From positions 9,350-66,133 of the forward strand of contig CAYHON010000002.1 in assembly GCA_964358425.1 (NCBI GenBank): a DNA stretch of 56,784 bases, in the 5' to 3' direction. Positions 10,031 to 53,492 of this stretch are shown one piece after another; positions within the stretch are counted from its first letter, which is position 1, and each line of letters begins with the position of its first letter. The DNA comes from an uncultured Candidatus Saccharibacteria bacterium (GTDB lineage: Bacteria; Patescibacteriota; Minisyncoccia; Sungbacterales; HO2-52-23). A program made the translations under genes and the position numbers. The notes beneath the pieces were generated by a model. That model made no database searches, was not told where the DNA came from, and was given only the letters and a program-made list of their open reading frames with translations.

Positions 10031-11920
10031 ATGCAAAATAAGTCAACACCACCACATAACAAGTTATGTGTGGGGTCAATGGTTCGACAAGCTCACCATA
10101 AAATAGCTCTATTTGTGGGTTTTGTGCTCGCGTTGATGCTCTCTCTGATGATAAATTCGGCCAAGCAGGATTCGGCGACGATGGACGAGCTGGCGCATAT
10201 CCCTTCCGGATATAGCTATGTCACCCAGCATGACTACCGCCTCAATCCCGAGCACCCTCCTCTGCTAAAGGCTTTGGCCGGACTCTCGGCGAGGATTTTT
10301 GTAAATCCCCTATTTCCTACGGACACCGCTTCCTGGCAGACCGACGTAAACGGCCAATGGACCGAAGGAGATACTTTTCTTTACCATTCCGGCAACGATG
10401 CGGATGAAATAATTTTCTGGTCGCGCCTGCCCCTGATACTGCTTACTGTCTTTTTTGCCGCGCTGATTTTCTGGTGGACCCGCCGGAAATTCGGCACGGG
10501 CACGGCCTTTCTTACCCTTTTATTTTTTGCCTTCTCCCCGACCGTTTTGACGCACGGGCGTCTCGTGACGACGGACGTAGGAGCAGCTTTCGGTTTTTTT
10601 CTCGGGATTATCGCCTTCATAAGGATGCTGGAAAAACCGACTTGGAAAAACGTTGTTTGGTCGGGTCTCGCTACGGGACTGGCCATGCTTTTAAAGTTCT
10701 CGCTGGTTTTAATCGTGCCGATTTTTGGCCTGATTTTGGCCGGCTGGGTATGGTCCATGCCCCGACAGGACGCGGGCGCGCGCTGGAAACATTTTTTTAG
10801 CCTGATTTGGAAAACTGTGGTCAGCGGACTGGTCGGCATAATTTTAATCTGGGCGGTGTACGCCTATTTTATTTATAACGAACCCCAGGCTAAACAACTA
10901 GCCGATGCGAATTTCATTATTGGCTCTTACCCCTCTAAAACCCTAGCCAATCTCGATCTGGCGCTTATAAAAAATGATTTTACGCGGCCACTGGGCCAAT
11001 ACGTTTTGGGGGTGCTGATGGTAAGCCAGCGCGCCGGCGGGGGCAATACGGCTTTTTTCCGGGGAGAAGTTTCCAATATGGGCTGGCGGTCTTATTTCCC
11101 GCTTTTATATCTGTATAAGGAGCCGCTTGCTCTGCATTTACTGACCTTGCTTGCCTTATGGCTGGGTTTAAATAAAATTTTTACTCGTACCAAGCTAAGC
11201 TTTGAAGAGAAAAAGCTTAGCTTGGTACGTTCTTGGATTTTCCGGCATTTGCCGGAGTTTTCTGGTATGGTAATGATAGTTGTTTATTGGGCATCATCCG
11301 TGACCTCTCCATTAAATTTGGGCATCCGCCACGTCTTGCCGACTTTCCCATTTATCTATCTGCTGGTATCCAGGCAAATCACCGATTGGCTGAAAATAAA
11401 ATTTTCGGGCCCGGCCGGATTTTTGGCAAACTTAAAAAATCTATTCAAAATTTATTTCGGCACCGGCCTTAAATATTTATTTGTAGCAGTACTTATGATC
11501 TGGCTGGTCGTCGGGACATGGTCTGCTTTTCCCCATTTTCTTTCTTATTACAACGCGCTGGCCGGCGGGACGGCCGACGGCTATAAAATCGCGGTGGATT
11601 CCAACTACGACTGGGGGCAGGATTTGCTCCGCTTAAAAAAATTCGTGGAGGATAACGACATAAACGAAATACACCTGGATTATTTTGGCGGCGGAAGCCC
11701 CGGTTATTACTTGGGAGAAAAATTTATGCCGTGGCGCTCCAGCAAGGGATATGTCTCTGGCTGGTATGCGGTATCTTCCGGTTTTCGCGAGCAGGCCTTT
11801 GGCCGACCAGTACCCGGCTTTAACCGCGGAGAGGACGAGACTTACAGCTGGCTCAAGCCGTACGAGCCGGTAGCGCGCGCCGGATATACCATCTGGATTT
11901 ATAGACTCCCTCAGTTGTGA
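10031..11920 (+). CDS. GT-C fold (GT39/PMT_2-like) membrane glycosyltransferase
   Basis: 629 aa, multi-TM, with the motif MDELAHIPSGYSY early in the first loop. The true start may be an internal Met (MVRQAHHK at 10079). Confidence 0.7.
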   Translation: MQNKSTPPHNKLCVGSMVRQAHHKIALFVGFVLALMLSLMINSAKQDSATMDELAHIPSGYSYVTQHDYRLNPEHPPLLKALAGLSARIFVNPLFPTDTASWQTDVNGQWTEGDTFLYHSGNDADEIIFWSRLPLILLTVFFAALIFWWTRRKFGTGTAFLTLLFFAFSPTVLTHGRLVTTDVGAAFGFFLGIIAFIRMLEKPTWKNVVWSGLATGLAMLLKFSLVLIVPIFGLILAGWVWSMPRQDAGARWKHFFSLIWKTVVSGLVGIILIWAVYAYFIYNEPQAKQLADANFIIGSYPSKTLANLDLALIKNDFTRPLGQYVLGVLMVSQRAGGGNTAFFRGEVSNMGWRSYFPLLYLYKEPLALHLLTLLALWLGLNKIFTRTKLSFEEKKLSLVRSWIFRHLPEFSGMVMIVVYWASSVTSPLNLGIRHVLPTFPFIYLLVSRQITDWLKIKFSGPAGFLANLKNLFKIYFGTGLKYLFVAVLMIWLVVGTWSAFPHFLSYYNALAGGTADGYKIAVDSNYDWGQDLLRLKKFVEDNDINEIHLDYFGGGSPGYYLGEKFMPWRSSKGYVSGWYAVSSGFREQAFGRPVPGFNRGEDETYSWLKPYEPVARAGYTIWIYRLPQL

Positions 11921-11959
11921 CACGAGGTTGACATACCAAGGATGGGTATGATACATATG

Positions 11960-12400
11960 TATATAGCGTCAAACTGGTCCGGCAAACCTGCGGGCAGAGT
12001 AAGCTCACCGACGACAGATACGGCTTACCGCGCAGTACCAGTTTGAGGGTGTGGGTCAGTCGGGGAAAACGGGACAGCGCCAAGATGGCGGCTTGCGTCA
12101 GAATAATTGGCGGAGCTAGGATGCCACCCCCGGCGAGGATCTCCGACCAGGAGAAGAGACTGACCCACTTTTTAAGCTCATTGAAATTGCCTCTTGTGTG
12201 TGGTCTGTAGACCAGTCACGGAGGCGGTAACCGAGGCACAGAACACCGGCCTCATAAGCCTGGACAACCCACCCTCGGTAGCGTGCTTAGCACGGGAACC
12301 AGAGGCAGAGCACGCTGCCGAGGCTATAATTCCTACTCCGACAGGTAAAACGAGCCCTTCTCCACGAGAAGGGCTCGCAATTTTTATAAAGATGTTTTGG
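11960..12400. ncRNA. Large GC-rich structured non-coding RNA candidate (class unknown)
   Basis: A roughly 530-nt gap between convergent genes has no credible ORF. Perfect long-range helices are TCAAACTGGT (11969-78)/ACCAGTTTGA (12037-46), with nested CTGCG/CGCAG and GTAAGC/GCTTAC. Further helices are GTGGGTCAGTC (12051-61)/GACTGACCCAC (12158-68), GGTC-tgta-GACC (12202-13) and CGGAG (12219)/CTCCG (12345). The region ends in a terminator hairpin. Confidence 0.5.
12352..12385. terminator. 11-bp terminator-like hairpin
   Basis: GAGCCCTTCTC-cac-GAGAAGGGCTC. It is followed by GCAATTTTTAT on the + strand and by GTTTTACC on the - strand. Confidence 0.6.
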
Positions 12401-12451
12401 CAGGGATGCAGGAACCTTTGATGGAAGCGGTTTTTTTATTTCTATTTTTGA

Positions 12452-13381
12452 TTAAAATTCGGAAGGGGTTGAACTGGCGGCTGTGGCGGATACCGGGTCG
12501 GAGGCGGCTGGCGTGGAGACTGCGGCTGTTTTTTTAAATTTATAAAAAACTTTGTTGCCGAAGCGCAAGTCTATATATTCCAGTTGAGGTTGCTTATCCC
12601 CTATTTCCTTATCCAGGACCACCTTCAATACCTTAAAAACTTTAGAGAAATCATCATTTTTGTTTAAATACAACTTATAGCCTCCGGCACTTACAGCTCT
12701 AAACTCTTCGGGCAGTTTCGAAAAAATTTCATAGCCAATCACAGCCGAACCAACTAAAGAGAGAGACTCTCGGGAGACGGATTCAAATTTTTCCACCAGA
12801 CCACGGTCTATTATCTGGACCCCTATATCCTGCAAGAGGGCATCGGTGTTTATCGTCAGTAATAAAGAACCCTTGGAACTGGGAGATTCTTCATATGCAA
12901 ATCCGGTTTTATCCAGGAAAAAACATTTTTGTCTTTCTGTATCCGAAGAATCTGGTAAACCGCACAAAATACCAAAAAGCTCTCTTTCCTTAATTTTAAA
13001 ACTAAGGGAGTCGGGCAGATGCCGCGAGATCTCTATATTTTCAATACGGGGATATTCTTTTTTAAGCTCGCGGGCCAGTTTGTCCGTACTTACCAAAAAA
13101 TAAAAATCTTTTGGAAGCAGTTTTAAGTATTTTCCTTCCAGGAGGCTTAGGGTTTTTTGCTCCAATTCTTGCCGGTCCAAGGCCACGAGTCCCGAAAACT
13201 CTGTCCTTTTTATTTTAAAATAAGGCAGGCGGGACATATAAATCAGCCCACCGGCCAGAATTAATACAATCAGTACGACTAAGGCTGTTTTCCAGAAATA
13301 TTTACCGCCGTATTTAATCTTGGAAATTCTAAAGCGCGGAGTCGGCGGGTTTAAGGGGGAATAGACAACTCGGCTGGCCAT
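12452..13381 (-). CDS. ftsQ: FtsQ/DivIB-like cell division protein (POTRA domain)
   Basis: N-terminal TM anchor followed by a POTRA-like segment FKIKRTEFSGLVALDRQELEQK. The tail is Ser/Thr/Ala/Pro-rich. Confidence 0.6.
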   Translation of the reverse strand: MASRVVYSPLNPPTPRFRISKIKYGGKYFWKTALVVLIVLILAGGLIYMSRLPYFKIKRTEFSGLVALDRQELEQKTLSLLEGKYLKLLPKDFYFLVSTDKLARELKKEYPRIENIEISRHLPDSLSFKIKERELFGILCGLPDSSDTERQKCFFLDKTGFAYEESPSSKGSLLLTINTDALLQDIGVQIIDRGLVEKFESVSRESLSLVGSAVIGYEIFSKLPEEFRAVSAGGYKLYLNKNDDFSKVFKVLKVVLDKEIGDKQPQLEYIDLRFGNKVFYKFKKTAAVSTPAASDPVSATAASSTPSEF

Positions 13382-13387
13382 GATAAT

Positions 13388-14503
13388 TTAGACTAAAAAT
13401 CTTTTAATAAGCGGATTAAGCCGTGTTAAAAATTCATAGTGGTATCCGGTTTGCATTTGACGGGCAATATCATCGGCCCAGATTTCTTCCTGCCCCTGCC
13501 GGCCCAAAAGAACCGCCTCATCCCCTTCTTTTATTTTAGCAATTTCTGTAACATCCGCCACAATCATATCCATAGAAACCCGGCCTATTATTTTGGCGCG
13601 CTTGCCTCCCGCTAATATCTCGCCGCAGTCGGACAGACGGCGGTCATAACCGTGCCAGTAGCCGACCGGCAAGACAGCTATGCGGGTTGGTCTTTGGGTT
13701 TTAGCCGTGAGACCGTAGCCTACAAATTCGCTCGCCGGCACTTCCTTGAGCTCGCTTATCCGGGTCTTCCAGGATAATACCGGACGAAGGCTTATTTTAG
13801 ATTTTAACTCCAACGAGGGCGGATAGCCATAAAGACCGATGCCCACCCGCACCATATCCAGGGCGGTTTCGGGATGGCCTAAGACTCCTCCGCTAGAGGA
13901 GGCGCTTTTGATAAGATTTTTAAATCCGTTTTCTTGCAGTATTTTTACGGCTGATAAAAATTTTTTAAACTGACTTTCAGTAAATTTTTTATGTCTTGGG
14001 TCGGTGGGTGACGCGAGGTGGGTGTATATACCTAGAGGTGCAAGTCTCGATATTTTTAAATTAGCCAGGAGGCGGAACAGGTCGTCTTCCATAAAACCCT
14101 GCCGATGCATACCCGAATCTATCTTTAAAAAAAATCGGGGACACACGGCGGTTTTGCCGATTTCGGCCAAAAGAGAAAAATTGGATACGGTTACGGTGAT
14201 TTTGTTTTTATGCGCTTCCGAAAGACGGGAGGGTAAGGTCTGCCCCAGCACCAAAAGTTTATTTTTAATGCCTTTTTTTCTTAGGGCCAAGGCTTCTGTA
14301 ATGGAATCAAGACCAAACCAGATTTCCCTGTCTTTTACGGAAGAAAGGACTTGGGCGGTTTCCACCAGGCCATGGCCGTAGGCGTTGGACTTGATTACAG
14401 CCATAAAAATGGTACTCTCAGGAATCAATTGCAAAAAGCTCCTCGTGTTTCCGAGGAGGGCTTTTTGATCTATTTCTATCCAGGTGCGGAGTTTCTCAAT
14501 CAC
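13388..14503 (-). CDS. alr: Alanine racemase
   Basis: PLP-lysine motif AVIKSNAYGHG. The C-terminal beta domain carries VGYG...SMDM. Confidence 0.9.
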   Translation of the reverse strand: MIEKLRTWIEIDQKALLGNTRSFLQLIPESTIFMAVIKSNAYGHGLVETAQVLSSVKDREIWFGLDSITEALALRKKGIKNKLLVLGQTLPSRLSEAHKNKITVTVSNFSLLAEIGKTAVCPRFFLKIDSGMHRQGFMEDDLFRLLANLKISRLAPLGIYTHLASPTDPRHKKFTESQFKKFLSAVKILQENGFKNLIKSASSSGGVLGHPETALDMVRVGIGLYGYPPSLELKSKISLRPVLSWKTRISELKEVPASEFVGYGLTAKTQRPTRIAVLPVGYWHGYDRRLSDCGEILAGGKRAKIIGRVSMDMIVADVTEIAKIKEGDEAVLLGRQGQEEIWADDIARQMQTGYHYEFLTRLNPLIKRFLV

Positions 14504-29800: not shown

Positions 29801-31333
29801 TCATTCCAAAAGCTTTCTCTGGTGTCTTGATATATCAGTCTCCACTTTTTTTGCTTCTTTGTAATAGGATTCTGACCAAAGAGGCATTTTAGGACGCAGA
29901 CCAATAAGTAAGTCCTTTATAGTGATTATCTGAATTTTAGGAAATTCTTCTTTATGAAATCCATTAAAACTAATTTCAAATTTACCAGAACTTACTGCTT
30001 CTTCCCTCATTGGTCTGGTCGGTTCCTCTAGTGTTAACAGTAGTCCGCCGTCAGCCTTTTCTCGGTCTATATCTCCTTTCAAGGCGGCGATATCTTTTCT
30101 TTGAACTCCCCCGCCTTTTACCTGTACCAAGATTTTTCCATATTCACGGTCTCCATTCTTAATATTTTTTACAATTGTGATAATCCCATCAATTCCTTTA
30201 TCCGCTCCCCGCATATTTTCTTTAGACTTGCTTTGGGCTGGCATGGCGTTTACCAAGTCTAAGGCCCAATATTCAAATTCAAAGGGATCTTTTTTGAATA
30301 ACGATTTAGCACCGGTCAAATCTTTCGGCAGACCATCAACATGAATCTGCATAAACTTGTCAGAAAATTGTTTTTTTAGACGGTGTTTGACTAAATTGAC
30401 AGCTAATGCTGTAATATCAATGCCGACCCAGCGCCTATCTAGTTTTTCAGATACCGCAACAGTAGTTCCGCAGCCACAAAACGGATCTAAAATCCAATCT
30501 CCATTTTTCGAAGAAGCCTCGATAATACGTTCCAGCAATGCTTCTGGTTTTTGTGTTGGGTAACCTAACCTTTCATTTGCATTGCCAGCTATGGTGGGAA
30601 TGTACCAATAATCTGCTATTGGAGTTCCAATAGATTCCTCCTCTTGATCTCTGGATAATCTTTTACCGTCAATAAACGTAGCTTTCTGTTTTTTGCCCTT
30701 ATGTATTTTAATGGTTATATCTGCTAGGGGTTGGTATATGGTATTAAAAGTATAATCCCCCCGCTCGTCTTTTACATAGAAAAAAATTATATCATGCATC
30801 CTCTGAAATGATTTTGATTTAGCAGGCCAGCGTCTATATGTCCAAATAATTTCATTTCTAAAGTTTTGTTTTCCAAAAATCGCATCCATTACTATTTTTA
30901 AATAATGACTCGCGGTCGGGTCGCAATGCAGGTAAATACTGCCTGTATTTTTCAAAACTCTATGCAATTCAATAAGCCGCGTTGTCATCATTGTTAAATA
31001 AGCCAAAACATCGTTGTGGCCTATCATCTTTTCCAGAGCCAGCATGAGATTCGAAATCTGCTCGTTTATTCTTATTTTAGACGGCCTTGCGCCGACCAGC
31101 TGTTCAAAAGTGCTCTGGGCGTCGGCTGTCCAGTGCCAGCTGTCCTCAAACGCCTGAATTTGCGCCTGACTGTCCGCTAAACCCTCCTTAAACAAAACGT
31201 TGTAATTACGATTAGAATTAAATGGCGGGTCTAAATAAATCAAATCAAAATAACCCTCACCGTCAGGTTTGTCCGGAAACTTATCTCGTAAAATATCCAG
31301 GTTGTCCCCAAAATAAAGAGTCCGATTTTGCAT
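29801..31333 (-). CDS. DNA methyltransferase (beta-class N6A/N4C) fused to a C-terminal Mrr-like PD-(D/E)xK nuclease domain
   Basis: Motif IV IYLDPPFNSNRNYN precedes motif I DPFCGCGTTVAV, which is the beta order. The C-terminus GADKGIDGI...ILVQVKGG fits the D...(E/Q)xK restriction-endonuclease core. The start is taken at MQNRTLYFGDN. The gene is AT-richer than the flanking tkt genes. Confidence 0.8.
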   Translation of the reverse strand: MQNRTLYFGDNLDILRDKFPDKPDGEGYFDLIYLDPPFNSNRNYNVLFKEGLADSQAQIQAFEDSWHWTADAQSTFEQLVGARPSKIRINEQISNLMLALEKMIGHNDVLAYLTMMTTRLIELHRVLKNTGSIYLHCDPTASHYLKIVMDAIFGKQNFRNEIIWTYRRWPAKSKSFQRMHDIIFFYVKDERGDYTFNTIYQPLADITIKIHKGKKQKATFIDGKRLSRDQEEESIGTPIADYWYIPTIAGNANERLGYPTQKPEALLERIIEASSKNGDWILDPFCGCGTTVAVSEKLDRRWVGIDITALAVNLVKHRLKKQFSDKFMQIHVDGLPKDLTGAKSLFKKDPFEFEYWALDLVNAMPAQSKSKENMRGADKGIDGIITIVKNIKNGDREYGKILVQVKGGGVQRKDIAALKGDIDREKADGGLLLTLEEPTRPMREEAVSSGKFEISFNGFHKEEFPKIQIITIKDLLIGLRPKMPLWSESYYKEAKKVETDISRHQRKLLE

Positions 31334-39757: not shown

Positions 39758-41550
39758 TTATACAATCTCGCTATTGTAACAGCTTTCGCAGTATATTATC
39801 TCCTTTCTCTCGGGACTGTAAGAGGTCTCAAACTCGTTGGGACAGGATTGGTCGCTGTGAAAATGAGTAGTTTGGTTTTGATAAATTATTATTGATTCTT
39901 GATTCTGACTTCTGGATTCTTTCCCATTGCACATACATCTCCTCTTCCAGAGCTTCAGGGGATTCCTCTGCTTCAATCGTGAATAATGCCTACAGTTGGG
40001 ACAGAGTCTGGGTAAGGGCAGGTTCATCTTACGGTAGAACTCCAGCTCTTGAGGGATGATACGAAAAGCCGAGGTACATTGTTCGTTACAAGTACCTTGG
40101 TGGCTACAGCCTATGTTTTGGGTAAGAATAGAGTCATCTACGTCTTTGATATGGTCGGGGAGGGATTCGGGGGTCAGGTTTATGGTGTATTCTCTCTTTT
40201 CATCTTCTTTCCAAGTGTAGCCTTGAGCTATGGCTTCCTCCTTAGTCAGAGGGAAGTATTCTTGAGCTATGGTCTCATTGTAGGAGAAGGGAGAGAGTTC
40301 AGGAGGAAAGAACTCTCCATACCTGTATATCCTTCCTTTAGAGTCGGTGTAGGGCATAGAGTTCATATGCTCTATGATCTGGGATATCAGCTTCTCATAG
40401 TCTTCTTTGGAGTATTGGCGGTTGAGGATACAATAGGACTTATTGCGGAGGCCCACACAACCAAATAGATTGTTGGAGTTGTGGCAGTTGAAGGAGTATT
40501 CAACGTCGTGGCTTCTGTAAACAACTATGGTGAATTTTACTCTTGAACCGGATATACCCGAATCTACCGATTCATAAAGCAAATCCACTCCTCCACCAAC
40601 CCCATAGCCATCATAGGAGTCTTTCATACCCATACCCCCCCAGACGGCGTATTTAGAATCCTCTACCCCCACCACATCAAAACACTGATAACAATTTTTA
40701 GTATTGCCAACTATATCCCCCACTACATCCACGATTTTAAAAGAATACATATATTTTCTAGGGAAGTTTAGTATCGTCTGCCCATATGTTTCTTTTAATT
40801 CCGTTAGTTTTTTATAACTTCCCAGATCAAAATTTTTGATGGCTTTTTTATAATCTTCTTTGGAGTAAGGTTTATTAAAAATATAATAAGATTTATTTCT
40901 TAAGCCCGTACAACCGAAACAGTCCGAACAGTTTCGGCAGTCAAACAAAAAAGCCGAGTTACTACAGTCCTCGCAGCCAAAAGAAAATAAAATTTTATAT
41001 GATGTTCCAGAATTGACCGTCTCATAAGATAAGTCCAAGTGGTCAACTAAATATAAATCAGCCGAATCTTTGGAAGAAGCTACTCGGTTGGAATAAAGTA
41101 TGTTTTCACTTCGCCAAGCCGCAGAAATCAAAAAAAGAATTCTTGCTATCTTCGGCGTGGTTGGCGTAATCAGAGTTTACGGCGTTGGTGTTGAACAGGG
41201 CTATGGCTGGAGTATTTTTTAATAGTTCCCCGAACTGGATAAAAAATAATTTTTGGGGCTCATACTTCAAACCAAATTGAATCGGGTCCCATTGATCCGA
41301 CCACCAATATTTTTGGTCATATATCTTAGCATCTGCCCCGGGGTGATAGATAGAAATAACATCTTCCTGATGACCAGGAGCTCGGCATTTATTTTTTATA
41401 TAAAACTCGTTCATTGCGCCAGGCCATTCTTCTAACCATCCGACACTCCGGACACCACGTCGGCGGAGGGACTTTTATTTTGGAATAGAATTGCAGATCA
41501 TCATCAGTGACCTCAAATGAGTTTTTGCAGTTTTGGCACTCTTTGTTCAT
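39758..41550 (-). pseudogene. Cys-rich zinc-ribbon repeat protein gene split in three by two +1 frameshifts at homopolymers
   Basis: The pieces are 41389..41550 (MNKECQNCK...), 41106..about 41395 and 39758..about 41125. They read as one protein if one base is removed from A6 (coding strand, + strand 41392-97) and from T7 (+ strand 41130-36). The module FY.K...P.P..CP.CR occurs at both ends. The internal duplicate is C.NC.DCFGC.GLRNKSY.I.N..YSKEDY. Confidence 0.6.
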
Positions 41551-41559
41551 ATCTTCTCG

Positions 41560-41594
41560 CCCTCCCAAATTTTGCGTAGCAAAACTTGGGAGGG
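41560..41594 (-). promoter_or_regulatory. 16-bp hairpin sequestering the Shine-Dalgarno of the Cys-rich gene
   Basis: The mRNA reads CCCUCCCAAGUUUUGC-uac-GCAAAAUUUGGGAGGG, then 9 nt, then AUG (41550). The GGGAGGG SD is base-paired with a perfect anti-SD CCCUCCC. Confidence 0.6.
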
Positions 41595-41695
41595 TAAATA
41601 AAACAAAAAATCCTCGGGTTCTATTACAAACTCGTTTTGGCAATTCTGGCAGATTTTAGTTTCCGTATTCATTCTTAATTCTTGATTCTTGCTTC

Positions 41696-42493
41696 TTAAT
41701 TCTTTGGAGACATATGTATCAAATATTCTTTATTCCCCTTATCCCCGCGGATGGGCGACTCCATAGTATTTTTTATTTTCCAGCCGTTTGACTCGGCCCA
41801 CTTTTTAAAACCTTCCAGCAGATTTTCCCGGTCCTGATCGGTTTTTATAATTCCGTGATGCAAGAGGCTTTGGTCCCGGGTCTGATACTGGGGTTTGAAA
41901 AGGGCCACTACTTCTCCTTTGGGAGACAAGAATCTACGCACGGCCGGCAGGATGTTTTCCAAAGGAATCAAGGATACGTCAATCGTAACAAGGTCTACTT
42001 CTTCGGGCAACTTGCCCCCACACCATAACGGAGATCGCGTTTCGCGTGAATTCTTATTTATCTCCGTTTGGTGTGGGGGTGAATCCAAACTGCGCACATC
42101 GGTGTCCTCCATCACCACCACTTTGGGATTTTCCCTGATTTTAGGCGCCATTTTTCCGCGGGCCGTATCTATGGCGTATACTTTCTCGGCTTCGTGCAAA
42201 AGCAAAATTTCCGTAAAACCGCCGGTAGCCGAGCCAATATCGGCGCAAATTTTCCCGGTCGGATTTATTTCAAAATTTTTCAGCGCCGCTTCCAATTTCA
42301 AGGCTCCTCGGCCGACGTATTTGAACCGTCCGCGGAACTCTATTTTATCTTTTTCGCCTACCATTTGCGCCGGCGAGATGGCTTTATGGCCATTTAGAAA
42401 AACAGCGCCTTCGGTGACTTTCACGAAAGCGTCTGGTTTGTCTCGGACAAGTTTTTGCTCTATGAGAAACTCGTCTAACCGGCGTTTTTTCAT
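41696..42493 (-). CDS. tlyA: TlyA-family rRNA 2'-O-methyltransferase
   Basis: S4 domain (RLDEFLIEQKLV), FtsJ-like motif I DIGSATGGFTE, and VSLI. Confidence 0.85.
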   Translation of the reverse strand: MKKRRLDEFLIEQKLVRDKPDAFVKVTEGAVFLNGHKAISPAQMVGEKDKIEFRGRFKYVGRGALKLEAALKNFEINPTGKICADIGSATGGFTEILLLHEAEKVYAIDTARGKMAPKIRENPKVVVMEDTDVRSLDSPPHQTEINKNSRETRSPLWCGGKLPEEVDLVTIDVSLIPLENILPAVRRFLSPKGEVVALFKPQYQTRDQSLLHHGIIKTDQDRENLLEGFKKWAESNGWKIKNTMESPIRGDKGNKEYLIHMSPKN

Positions 42494-51379: not shown

Positions 51380-51997
51380 TTAGCGAGAGAAGAATTCTTT
51401 TATTTTGGTTAGGTCGGCGGTTAATTCTCCGTCTTCTATTTCCGGAGAACCGGTTACTTGTCCTTCTTTTTTATTTTTATCCAGCGTAAGCCAGCGGGGT
51501 GATTCGTACTTTTTATATTTTGATTCCAAATCTTTAAAAATGGCCAGCCCGGAGGATTTTTCTTTCAGGGAAATCAAATCCCCTTTCTTGGCTTGGTAGG
51601 AAGATATGTTGACGGAGCGGCCGTTTACCCGGATATGCCCGTGGTTTACCAATTGCCGGGCAATGCGCCGGGAGTTGGCCAGGCCCAGGCGGAAAACTAC
51701 ATTGTCCAGTCTTGACTCCAGCAGTTTAAGCAAAACCGCATTAAAAACTCCTCTTTTGAAAACAGCTTTTTGGCTGTATGACTCCACTTCTTTATTGGTC
51801 AGGCCGTAAATAAATCTCACTTTTTGTTTTTCATGCAAAAGCTGGCCGAATTCCGAAGAAGCCCGCCGCCGGCTTTTACCGTGCACACCGGGGGCATAAC
51901 TTCGGCGCGTCAAAGCGCACTTGGGGCCCGAACAGCGGTCCCCTTTCAAAAAAAGTTTTTCTCCCAGCCGTCTTTCTGTTTTTTCTAATATCCTCAT
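51380..51997 (-). CDS. rpsD: 30S ribosomal protein S4
   Basis: Motifs EKQKVRFIYG, an S4 domain LESRLDNVVFRLG.A.SR..ARQLV.HGHI.VNG. Confidence 0.95.
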   Translation of the reverse strand: MRILEKTERRLGEKLFLKGDRCSGPKCALTRRSYAPGVHGKSRRRASSEFGQLLHEKQKVRFIYGLTNKEVESYSQKAVFKRGVFNAVLLKLLESRLDNVVFRLGLANSRRIARQLVNHGHIRVNGRSVNISSYQAKKGDLISLKEKSSGLAIFKDLESKYKKYESPRWLTLDKNKKEGQVTGSPEIEDGELTADLTKIKEFFSR

Positions 51998-52081
51998 ACA
52001 TAAGTGACAGGTGACATGGGACAGGTGACATGGAATCTTTTAATGCATTTCCTTGTCGCTTGTCGCTTGTCGCTTGTCGCT
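51998..52081 (-). repeat. Heptad-repeat hairpin element, copy 2 (rpsK|rpsD spacer)
   Basis: + strand: ACATAAGTGACAGGTGACATGGGACAGGTGACATGGAATCTTTTAATGCATTTCCTTGTCGCTTGTCGCTTGTCGCTTGTCGCT. Confidence 0.9.
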
Positions 52082-52084
52082 ATT

Positions 52085-52519
52085 TTATACCCGGCGCACT
52101 TTTTTGGGACGGGGTCCGTTGTGTGGCAGAGGGGTGACGTCTTTGATGGAGATAATCGTCAGACCCTGGTTGGCCAAAGCTCTGACTGCGGAATCTCGTC
52201 CGGAACCTACCCCGCTGACCCGTATCATTATTTCCTGCAGACCGGATTTTTTGGTTTTTTCAACCACCGTCTCAGCCACGCGGGCCGCCGCATATGGGGT
52301 TGCCTTTTTGGCTCCGGTAAATCCCAAAGATCCGGCTGAAGACCAGGCTAAAACTCCGCCTTGGTCGTCGGCGATGGATATAATGGTGTTGTTGTAAGTC
52401 GCCTGGATAAAGGCTATACCCCGGCTGGCTTTATGGCCCGCCTTAACTTCCGGCGCTTTTTTGACGTCGGTTTTGGAGGACTCACCTTCAGATTTTTGTA
52501 TTATTCTTTTCTTTCCCAT
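52085..52519 (-). CDS. rpsK: 30S ribosomal protein S11
   Basis: Core GIAFIQATYNNTIISIADDQGGVLAWSSAG..GF.G.KK.TPYAA. The start is set at MGKKRI; the tracked N-terminal extension MFLVTCHLY is translation of the repeat. Confidence 0.95.
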   Translation of the reverse strand: MGKKRIIQKSEGESSKTDVKKAPEVKAGHKASRGIAFIQATYNNTIISIADDQGGVLAWSSAGSLGFTGAKKATPYAAARVAETVVEKTKKSGLQEIMIRVSGVGSGRDSAVRALANQGLTIISIKDVTPLPHNGPRPKKVRRV

Positions 52520-52594
52520 ATATAAGTGACATGTGACAAGAAACATGTGACATGGAATTTTTAATTTATCCTTGTCGCTTGTTACTTGTCGCTA
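52520..52594 (-). repeat. Heptad-repeat hairpin element, copy 3 (rpsM|rpsK spacer)
   Basis: + strand: ATATAAGTGACATGTGACAAGAAACATGTGACATGGAATTTTTAATTTATCCTTGTCGCTTGTTACTTGTCGCT. Confidence 0.9.
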
Positions 52595-52597
52595 ATT

Positions 52598-52984
52598 CTA
52601 AGTTGGGCTTGAGGACGGTTTTCGGCCTGATCCCATAGTTTTTCTGGTATTTCCCCGGCGGGTGCGGGAATTGGTCTTGGTTCTTTGACCGCGGACAGGC
52701 AGTCCTCTCATGTGCCGGGTGCCGCGATAAATGGACAGCTCTTTTAATCTTTTGATGTTGGTCATAATCTCCCGGCGCAAATCTCCTTCTATCTTATAAT
52801 TTTTTTCTATAATCTCTCTTATCCGGTTTACTTCCTGGGCCGACAAGTCTTTGGTCCTTTTATCCGGATCCACCTGGGCTATCTTTAAAATCTTACGCGC
52901 GGACGTCAAACCCACGCCATATATATATGGAAGAGAATATTCTATCTTTTTGCTGTCCGGAATGTTTATACCTACAATGCGCAT
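52598..52984 (-). CDS. rpsM: 30S ribosomal protein S13
   Basis: MRIVGINIP...YIYGVG...[21 protein letters not shown]. The start is set at MRIVGI; the tracked extension MSHVTCHLC is translation of the repeat. Confidence 0.95.
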
Positions 52985-53066
52985 GCATAAGTGACATGTT
53001 ACATGTGACACGTGACATGGAATTTTTAATTTATCCTCGTCGCTTGTTACTTGTTACTTGTCGCTA
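52985..53066 (-). repeat. Heptad-repeat hairpin element, copy 4 (rpmJ|rpsM spacer)
   Basis: + strand: GCATAAGTGACATGTTACATGTGACACGTGACATGGAATTTTTAATTTATCCTCGTCGCTTGTTACTTGTTACTTGTCGCT. Confidence 0.9.
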
Positions 53067-53069
53067 ATT

Positions 53070-53186
53070 TTATCCTTGTCTTTGTTTATGTTTGGGATCA
53101 GATTTACATATAACGAATAGCCGACGTTTCCGCCGGACTACCTTGCATTTCGCGCAACGAGCCTTTACAGAAGCTTGAACTTTCAT
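53070..53186 (-). CDS. rpmJ: 50S ribosomal protein L36
   Basis: My own translation is [38 protein letters not shown]. It is too short for the ORF track. Confidence 0.9.
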
Positions 53187-53275
53187 ACATAAGTGACATG
53201 TGACATGTGACATGTGACATGGAATTTTTTAATGCATTTCCCCTTGTCACTTGTCACTTGTTACTTGTCGCTGGT
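53187..53275 (-). repeat. Heptad-repeat hairpin element, copy 5 (infA|rpmJ spacer)
   Basis: + strand: ACATAAGTGACATGTGACATGTGACATGTGACATGGAATTTTTTAATGCATTTCCCCTTGTCACTTGTCACTTGTTACTTGTCGCT. This is the most regular copy, with 4 heptads per arm. Confidence 0.9.
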
Positions 53276-53276
53276 T

Positions 53277-53492
53277 TTATTTCAGCCTAAGAATTATTCT
53301 GCCCTTGGTGTCATCGTAAGGAGACATTTCTACCCTTACTTTGTCTCCGGAAAGAATTTTTATAAAATTTAAGCGCATTTTACCCGAAAGATGACCCAGG
53401 ATTTCACGGCCATCCTCAAGCTTAATTTTAAAAAGGGTACCTGGAAGATTTTCCAAGACTACCCCTTCTATGCTTATCTTTTCTTTGCTCAT
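53277..53492 (-). CDS. infA: Translation initiation factor IF-1
   Basis: [65 protein letters not shown]. The tracked ORF is extended upstream to 53546. Confidence 0.9.

Follow-up and report, generated by a model that had tools for sequence, protein, structure and literature searches.

A candidate multi-hairpin RNA of no described family between convergent glycosyltransferase and ftsQ genes in a Sungbacteria-like bacterium

The subject of this analysis is a gene-free stretch in a 56,784-nt window (here, the whole of the DNA analysed) from a Sungbacteria-like member of the Candidate Phyla Radiation (CPR)/Patescibacteria from Hainich groundwater. On its left lies the gene of a GT-C (PMT_2/family 39-like) glycosyltransferase (10031..11920, + strand), recognized by its open reading frame (ORF) and translation; PF13231 matches a product identical to this glycosyltransferase, and its homologues are named glycosyltransferase family 39. 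On its right, and convergent with the GT-C gene, lies ftsQ (POTRA_1; 12452..13381, - strand), which served as the anchor for locating syntenic loci. The 531 nt between them, 11921-12451, form the biggest non-coding gap of the window, in a genome that is compact. The gap has a G+C content of 0.53, compared to 0.46 for the whole window; in 200-nt windows the value is 0.54-0.565 across 11800-12399, the 3' end of the GT-C gene being about equally GC-rich. The gap sequence is identical in three independent assemblies, two of them further ones from the Hainich site, and thus offers no population variants. An earlier sequence-only reading of the window had proposed a GC-rich, multi-domain structured RNA between convergent genes at this place. 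Both composition and folding energy (z about -5) bear this out, and the stretch is described here as a candidate non-coding RNA (ncRNA) of about 420 nt.

The candidate RNA occupies 11966..12385 on the + strand, with a predicted 5' end and with a 3' end placed at the T-run after a terminator hairpin. Folding of the region yields z-scores of -5.1 (+ strand) and -5.6 (- strand), and 0 of 100 dinucleotide shuffles fold equally well. Every sub-domain outfolds its own shuffles, with z-scores of -1.8 for stem-loop 1 (SL1), -2.3 for domain 2, -3.0 for SL3-4, -5.0 for SL5 and -6.3 for the terminator. As the scores are strongest in SL5 and the terminator, most of the signal is due to these 3' hairpins, with the 5' domains SL1 and domain 2 being only moderately unusual by energy alone. 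In a 200-nt folding scan of the whole window, 12201-12400 ranks as the fourth most extreme of 283 windows. The 420 nt hold perfect helices of 10, 11 and 12 bp and one helix of 15-16 bp.

SL1 (11969..12046, +) is a long, irregularly paired hairpin with UCAAACUGGU/ACCAGUUUGA as closing strands (as DNA, TCAAACTGGT/ACCAGTTTGA at 11969-78/12037-46), inside which helices CUGCG/CGCAG and GUAAGCU/GGCUUAC are nested (CTGCG/CGCAG and GTAAGCT/GGCTTAC in the DNA), in agreement with the first domain of the sequence-only reading. Domain 2 (12051..12168, +) is a branched unit of 118 nt with a perfect 11-bp closing helix, GUGGGUCAGUC/GACUGACCCAC, which had likewise been pointed out; its DNA strands, GTGGGTCAGTC/GACTGACCCAC at 12051-61/12158-68, enclose 96 nt, and 2 of 200 shuffles fold as well as this domain. 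The interior contains a GGGG/CCCC pairing and three small hairpins. In an alternative arrangement GUCGGGG pairs with CCCCGGC, which competes for three nucleotides of the closing helix. Directly 3' of that helix lies a U-run, UUUUU (12169..12173, +), which could conceivably serve as a conditional terminator. SL3 (12189..12225, +) is built from GCCUCU/GGAGGC, GUG/CAC and UGGUC-UGUA-GACCA, and contains at 12201-14 the GGTC-tgta-GACC hairpin noticed earlier. SL4 (12233..12253, +) is a GAGGC/GCCUC hairpin, the loop of which shows ACAGAACACCG, a string reminiscent of RNase P RNA. SL5 (12273..12323, +) is a 16-bp hairpin with strands CCTCGGTAGCGTGCT/AGCACGCTGCCGAGG at 12273-87/12309-23, matched in stability by 0 of 200 shuffles; it includes one U·G pair that would become an A·C mismatch on the - strand. 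A third domain closed by CGGAG/CTCCG, as had been suggested for this part, finds no support in the energy model or the fold.

The RNA ends in an intrinsic terminator (12351..12385, +) with a 3-nt loop and CAATTTTT after the stem. Its presence had been recognized before, with a stem of 11 bp; the stem measured here, 12351-62/12366-77, has 12 pairs, of which 8 are G-C, and is followed in the DNA by CAATTTTTAT. The hairpin qualifies as a Rho-independent terminator (a G+C-rich hairpin plus T-run), which concerns the 3' end only. Since it is also followed by TTTT on the - strand, the hairpin at 12351-12377 probably acts both ways and ends the ftsQ transcript as well.

The candidate RNA fits no described family. 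In the Rfam 15 scan that the sequence-only reading had named as a check, gathering scores over the whole window returned a tRNA-Gln only, and a search at E<=10 on 11850-12560 gave merely chance matches to microRNA-type hairpins (E 0.2-1.4). No Rfam 15 family fits, among them the signal recognition particle (SRP) RNA, 6S, OLE, GOLLD, ROOL, raiA, HEARO and the riboswitches, and Rfam matched none of the related loci and RNAs in the same gene interval of other genomes either. ARAGORN found no transfer-messenger RNA (tmRNA; acceptor/T-arm plus tag frame), its sole find being the tRNA-Gln at 2057-2131. The earlier judgement that the class is not recognisable, and that no tmRNA, RNase P RNA or SRP RNA is convincingly present, thereby holds up in ARAGORN, in Rfam and in an alignment to RF00010 that is described below.

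The gap had also been described as having no plausible ORF, and this agrees with Pfam, protein look-ups, tblastx and tblastn, all of which were negative. A protein-coding origin was considered and rejected, as ORFs within the gap reach at most 75 aa and the longest includes the terminator. None of these ORFs has a Pfam match or is called in public annotations, and none was found by exact look-up in a collection of 15 billion proteins, in which the contig itself is present. The 75-aa + strand ORF had 0 matches among 1.84 billion protein representatives. At the nucleotide level, the window and about 950 kb of related loci contain no further copy, and blastn against phage and plasmid collections gave nothing. 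An 18-mer scan of viral contigs produced three matches, all without similarity to the window, and a gapped module-pattern scan of viral contigs produced none. The 20-mer GAGGCACAGAACACCGGCCT (window 12238-12257) has, among the matches listed, one JGI metagenome occurrence, at L087:10719-10738; this was rejected as a chance match rather than a homologue, and sits inside an unrelated glycosyltransferase-like coding region.

For the comparison with relatives, 80 GTDB genomic loci around FtsQ homologues were examined, followed by assembly contigs with the most similar FtsQ (L numbers designate these loci and contigs). No FtsQ homologue above 44% identity was found anywhere, so all relatives are distant. 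In the 80 GTDB loci, neither nhmmer nor blastn detected a match to the window RNA. The gap matches L089:3232-3347(-) only (nhmmer E 6e-6 in the gap set and 5e-4 in all loci), in the same locus and orientation and next to an FtsQ that is 44% identical. The match spans domain 2 and the 3' strand of SL1, and contains identical blocks of 15-23 nt: CAGUCGGGGA, GACUGACCCACUUUU with the U-run, ACAG-GCCAA, GCGGAGC-AG-A-GCC and CCCCGGC. The last three, together with GGGGA, are conserved purine-rich unpaired segments of domain 2. The strands of the closing helix are identical in both sequences, and L089 has UUUU where the window has UUUUU after domain 2. The interior hairpins of the domain differ between the two, and the reading frames are broken because of indels of 1, 3, 4, 5 and 19 nt. 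In L089, domain 2 is immediately preceded on its 5' side by a hairpin with the closing strands AUUGAAUUGGUU/AACCAAUUUAGU, the counterpart of UCAAACUGGU/ACCAGUUUGA in SL1. When both helices are aligned by eye, one C-G pair is replaced by U-A and two others persist as G·U; this comparison is built on separate folds, SL1 having been misaligned by MAFFT and RNAalifold. A covariance model (R1) built from domain 2 of the window and L089 found just these two members in 484 kb. The conservation in relatives that the sequence-only reading had named as a check is partly there, for SL1 and domain 2, in one sequence and for the 5' half only. The part under selection is this 5' half, SL1 followed by the 118-nt domain and its U-run, and the unit of SL1 and domain 2 would form the functional core.

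Some further likenesses to L089 and L095 can be pointed out. An SL4-like, helix-flanked motif was found by eye in L089 (GCGUCCC-ACAGCAACCGG...GCAAC-GGGAACGC) and in L095 (GUGCUCC-ACAGCUACCGA...GGCAAC-GGAGCAC). Furthermore, the helix GUGGGU-CAGUC/GACUG-ACCCAC appears to be split in L089 and L095 into a P1 helix (GACGAU/AUCGUC) and a CAGUCYC/GRGACUG helix, about 58 nt apart on the 5' side. This split counterpart of the closing helix and the helix-flanked ACAG..ACCG motif suggest, from sequence comparison, that the whole window RNA may be a shortened relative of the L089-type RNA.

The interval between the GT-C gene and ftsQ, referred to here as the slot, differs widely between genomes. In 23 of the 80 GTDB loci the GT-C gene is convergent on ftsQ, with a spacing of 0 to about 4.9 kb. 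In L012 and L015 the slot holds nrdR, equipped with a TTGACA promoter of its own, and L013 keeps a truncated N-terminal nrdR. Given this range of spacing and the presence of nrdR in some loci, the slot is a variable spot, a hot spot of gene gain and loss. At least seven relatives have a gene-free, GC-rich stretch in the slot, always on the GT-C strand. Its length is 700-1300 nt in L088, L089, L092, L094 and L095/96, the last of which provides at least 727-748 nt before the contig ends; L093 shows the last 349 nt before its contig end. A scan found promoters of the form TTGACA-17-TATAAT/TATACT on the GT-C strand in L089 (12/12), L088 (12/12) and L095 (11/12), and similar ones were seen by eye in L092, L094, L001, L003 and L014. 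A terminator-like end was detected in L095 by the scan, with similar end hairpins elsewhere noted by eye. The slot RNAs of the relatives are free-standing genes with near-perfect sigma-70 promoters, as they are preceded by a terminator of the GT-C gene and have consensus promoters of their own. They are probably highly expressed.

By nhmmer, the slot sequences form three groups, A (L088 and L094, E 1e-74), B (L092 and L093, E 1e-25, with L001, E 5e-6) and C (L089 and L095/96, E 2e-12). In group A, pairwise RNAalifold of L088 and L094 gives 141 shared pairs, of which 13 show compensatory double changes. In group C, domain I retains an 11-bp outer helix, the CAGUCYC/GRGACUG helix and two hairpins despite many double changes. 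Since these two-sequence alignments show compensatory changes, the members of groups A and C look like structured RNAs. Groups A and B have no detectable sequence similarity to the window; a motif common to both, AAGUC-hairpin-GC(A/C)CCGG, is visible only by eye. Like all of these, the window has a structured region free of genes between the two convergent genes, on the strand of GT-C, with detectable homology to L089 only. It is the local member of the fast-evolving structured RNAs that occupy this slot, next to the second GT-C glycosyltransferase gene, in related Sungbacteria. The likeness extends to slot, strand, G+C enrichment, multi-hairpin build and terminator at the end. However, the slot RNAs of the relatives measure 600-1000 nt and have their own promoters and an upstream GT-C terminator, whereas the window copy measures about 420 nt and has neither.

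Two observations on these groups may be recorded separately. The group A RNA of about 600 nt, L088:4832-5440(-) and L094:2763-3394(-), is promoter-driven, and by eye one hairpin appears to have been exchanged as a whole with its pairing preserved. Domain I of group C, L095:1540-1753(-) and L089:2830-3059(-), reads GGUCUG...CAGAC(C), hairpin, AAA, CAGUCYC...GRGACUG; the order a, b, a', b' implies a pseudoknot, with the strand order of P1-P2-P3-P4 in RNase P RNA and with no Rfam match.

With regard to the strand, the evidence points to +: the T-run follows the terminator there, the U·G pair of SL5 and the G·U pairs of L089 function on this strand only, and the promoters of the relatives sit on the GT-C strand. 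A -35-like hexamer, TTGACA, lies at 11928..11933 (+), 8 nt past the GT-C stop, without an acceptable -10 element at 16-18 nt; TATGAT follows at 13 nt and TACATA at 18 nt. The window copy does not show the arrangement of the relatives, a sigma-70 consensus promoter of its own behind a GT-C terminator. No terminator-like site is present on the + strand in 11921-12350, that is, between the GT-C stop and the end hairpin of the RNA. The window RNA is therefore probably co-transcribed with the glycosyltransferase gene. The structured RNA of roughly 440 nt that had been envisaged is upheld in its structure, now put at about 420 nt, and less so as a gene of its own, the promoter being non-canonical.

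Taken together, 11966-12385 (+) is read here, with a probability of roughly one half, as a stable multi-hairpin ncRNA of about 420 nt that fits no described family and whose conserved domain binds a protein or a small molecule. Its newness lies in fitting no described family, and the comparative support, one partial homologue and one compensatory pair, is thin. Under this reading, transcription would enter from the glycosyltransferase gene, which has no terminator of its own, and perhaps weakly from the defective TTGACA promoter, which has no usable -10 element. The polymerase would pass five stem-loop domains and stop at the hairpin and T-run of 12351-12385, which would also serve the convergent ftsQ. 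The conserved domain might serve as a platform to which a protein or small ligand binds, and whether transcription or stability reaches the variable 3' hairpins could depend on the formation of its closing helix beside the U-run. Such gating of termination or stability could follow from the U-run adjoining the closing helix and from the competing GUCGGGG/CCCCGGC pairing; both of these roles are put forward with low confidence.

Several observations weigh against this reading. The homologue of the window's own RNA is a single sequence that covers about 210 of the 420 nt, in the 5' half, and the 3' half has only a short motif in common with L089. One compensatory pair is weak evidence of covariation. 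A promoter scan of 11500-12900 returned 0 promoter-like sites, in a position where the relatives have a canonical promoter, so the window RNA may prolong the glycosyltransferase mRNA at its 3' end and not be a free-standing gene of 440 nt. Neither the folding energy nor the window's own G·U counts discriminate between the strands, and the long helices, being perfectly Watson-Crick paired and equally stable on either strand, would also fit DNA palindromes or young sequence. The element is missing from the slot in about 10 relatives, which leave no room for it (gaps of 0-65 nt). One relative without it, L099, is among the closest GT-C homologues with 62% identity and has no gap; the contigs of two other close GT-C homologues, L098 and L100, end 48-103 nt past the gene. 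Profile nhmmer across the three groups found no significant cross-group match, and because the groups cannot be aligned together, a single family is not established. Finally, the proposed binding or termination role is a candidate only, of low confidence.

Among the alternatives, a divergent RNase P RNA deserves attention, as RNase P RNA was detectable only at about 5 bits in 10 of 35 complete CPR genomes and has thus been reported to evade Rfam thresholds (Lui et al. 2021, PMC8172020). Literature searches for an ncRNA described from CPR/Patescibacteria turned up this report alone and no lineage-specific RNA. The candidate is about 400 nt long and GC-rich like RNase P RNA, and ACAGAACACCGGCC at 12238-51 is similar to ACAGAACCCGGCUUA, the 3' strand of P4, and can form a helix with GGUCCGG (11976-82) that, like P4, has a bulged U. 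However, RF00010 and RF00011 give no match at the gathering score, nor at E<=10 (about 13-14 bits) on 11850-12560, and the RNAs of L095, L088 and L089 do not match them either. Aligned locally to the RF00010 consensus (derived from an alignment of E. coli rnpB), with conserved positions up-weighted, the region scores 54, compared to 51.6 +/- 5.2 for shuffles with a maximum of 64. The conserved order GAGGAAAGUCC ... AGAUGAAUG ... ACAGAACCCGGCUUA is not found, GAGGAAAGUCC being absent and only a CR-V-like string being present. Threading P1-P4 onto the window by hand failed, and the RNase P-like strings ACAGAUACGGCUUAC, GGGGAAAACGGGAC and CCAAGAUGG stand in the wrong order and were taken as chance. 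The putative 5' strand of P4, about 10 nt into the RNA and in overlap with the SL1 helix, leaves no P1-P2-P3 upstream. The ACAGAAC string, which should form the 3' strand, lies within a 21-nt hairpin, in the loop of SL4 and about 100 nt before the end; the sequence-only reading had already found it misplaced. The core regions of RNase P RNA are nearly invariant, in contrast to the slot RNAs of the relatives, which diverge beyond alignment. The resemblance to class A RNase P RNA (RF00010) therefore amounts to the size range, the G+C richness and an ACAGAAC-N-CCGGC pairable with GGUCCGG, and, for domain I of L095 and L089 rather than the window, to the order P1, a, hairpin, AAA, b ... a', b', P1', established partly by eye. 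The differences are that the window RNA has no covariance-model match, no similarity to the consensus above shuffles, none of regions I-IV and the wrong topology, and that in the relatives the U of CAGUC is paired instead of bulged. An identity as RNase P RNA is thus highly improbable.

The other explanations concern the origin and working level of the stretch. It is rather unlikely, and still worth serious thought, that the structure is a cis-acting 3' untranslated region (UTR) that protects the GT-C mRNA from 3' exonucleases and insulates the convergent units, with no role in trans. The uninterrupted path from the GT-C stop into the structured region, the lack of a canonical promoter, the end hairpin usable in both directions and the strength of the structure signal in the two 3' hairpins all suit a 3' UTR. 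However, the RNAs of the relatives are set off from GT-C by a terminator and have consensus promoters, the relatives with gaps of 0-65 nt manage without such a structure, and in domain 2 internal sequence blocks are conserved beyond the helices. An unlikely scenario is decay, in which a free-standing gene of the L089 type would have lost its promoter and most of its length and left residual structure without function. The window copy is indeed the shortest (about 420 nt against 600-1000 nt), the spacer of its promoter is about 4 nt short (TTGACA-13-TATGAT against TTGACA-17-TATAAT in the relatives), and the slot is variable, with a truncated nrdR in L013. A relic would not be expected to have perfect helices without erosion, blocks of 15-23 nt identical to L089 across a deep divergence, or the same sequence in three independent assemblies. 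CPR genomes are streamlined, 0.5 kb of junk being unusual in them, and this gap is the biggest of the window. An element acting at the DNA level, such as a palindrome-rich insertion (a miniature mobile element, a recombination site or a protein-binding site), would account for the perfect Watson-Crick helices of equal energy on both strands and for the patchy presence within an otherwise conserved gene pair, and another intergenic palindromic repeat family does exist in the window at 52-53.3 kb. This origin is quite improbable in view of the single-copy state (across the window and 950 kb of related loci), the absence of matches in phage, plasmid and viral collections, the promoters and terminators that bound the equivalent stretches in relatives, and the G·U-compatible substitutions, which favour pairing of RNA from one strand; by eye, terminal inverted repeats with target-site duplications are not evident at the gap borders. 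That the gap holds a decayed or very small protein gene, either an nrdR remnant or the + strand ORFs of 34, 55 and 75 aa, is the kind of origin that one would hardly credit: these three ORFs do tile the gap and nrdR does occupy the slot in L012 and L015 and, truncated, in L013, but tblastn with two NrdR proteins reached a best E of only 0.26 (531-nt target), tblastx against all loci gave nothing, every frame is broken by indels relative to L089, and the Pfam, protein and annotation look-ups were negative as given above.

Returning to the reading as a structured ncRNA, a wider and more tentative proposal, held at somewhat less than even odds, is that the window RNA is a reduced member of an undescribed class of large (0.4-1 kb), modular and fast-evolving structured RNAs that is confined to a Sungbacteria subclade and retained at one syntenic slot beside ftsQ. 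Its module would be a branched domain with an (A/U)CAGUC/GACUGA-containing helix by a U-run, the fuller form in L095 and L089 would be a pseudoknot with the P1-P4 order of RNase P RNA, and the RNA could work as a ribonucleoprotein or a ligand sensor of ultra-small bacteria. Like OLE, GOLLD, ROOL, raiA and HEARO, the window RNA is at least 400 nt long, multi-domain, GC-rich, narrow in range and without an obvious cis target, but it matches none of their Rfam models, evolves much faster and has no evident associated protein gene. Domain 2 resembles a riboswitch or attenuator in its branching, in the U-run that follows its closing helix and in the competing GUCGGGG/CCCCGGC pairing. In contrast to these, however, it belongs to no known aptamer class, is followed by further structured RNA and has no downstream coding gene on either strand, as had been noted, GT-C and ftsQ being convergent. 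Bacteria rarely have large structured ncRNAs, and new biology has come with each new class (OLE, GOLLD, ROOL, raiA); in the tiny genomes of CPR bacteria, 0.4-1 kb of non-coding DNA is costly. A syntenic, promoter-driven and fast-evolving structured RNA by envelope and division genes would, if the proposal is true, be a candidate CPR-specific ribonucleoprotein or sensor. If the stretch is a relic or a 3' UTR, it still documents a hypervariable slot within a conserved gene neighbourhood.

Further observations were made around ftsQ and the slot. The junction of alr and ftsQ (window 13476-13482) is longer by about 35 bases in L081:2865-2906, from an assembly of the same organism that is identical in other respects and in which alr is called with 345 aa and not 371 aa; this is a variant of the strain or of the assembly. 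In L001, L003 and L004, a conserved element of about 110-200 nt lies right after the ftsQ stop (nhmmer E 1e-13 for L001/L003), with AAUGGGAGG...CCCUUAGCGA...GAGCGUGUC in a long inverted repeat; it has no Rfam match and does not occur in the window. The slot region of L020 and L024 contains recurring GC-rich units, e.g. ...GAGGAGCCCGAAUGAACAGGAUCGACACCUGACGGACUCC, found twice in L024 and in a related version in L020, which look like another small structured motif.

Elsewhere in the window, 51995-53280 contains four copies of a 73-95-nt intergenic element between small - strand, apparently ribosomal-protein genes. Each is composed of tandem heptamers GTGACAT/GTGACAG (3-4), an AT-rich centre and CTTGTCGC/CTTGTCAC/CTTGTTAC (3-4 copies), and the pairing of the arms includes U·G when read on the + strand, antisense to the genes. 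These elements have no Rfam match and show the strongest folding z in the window, -5.7 to -7.5. More folding outliers, in or between genes, lie at 41401-41600, 42001-42200 and 30801-31000 (z = -4.2 to -4.4).

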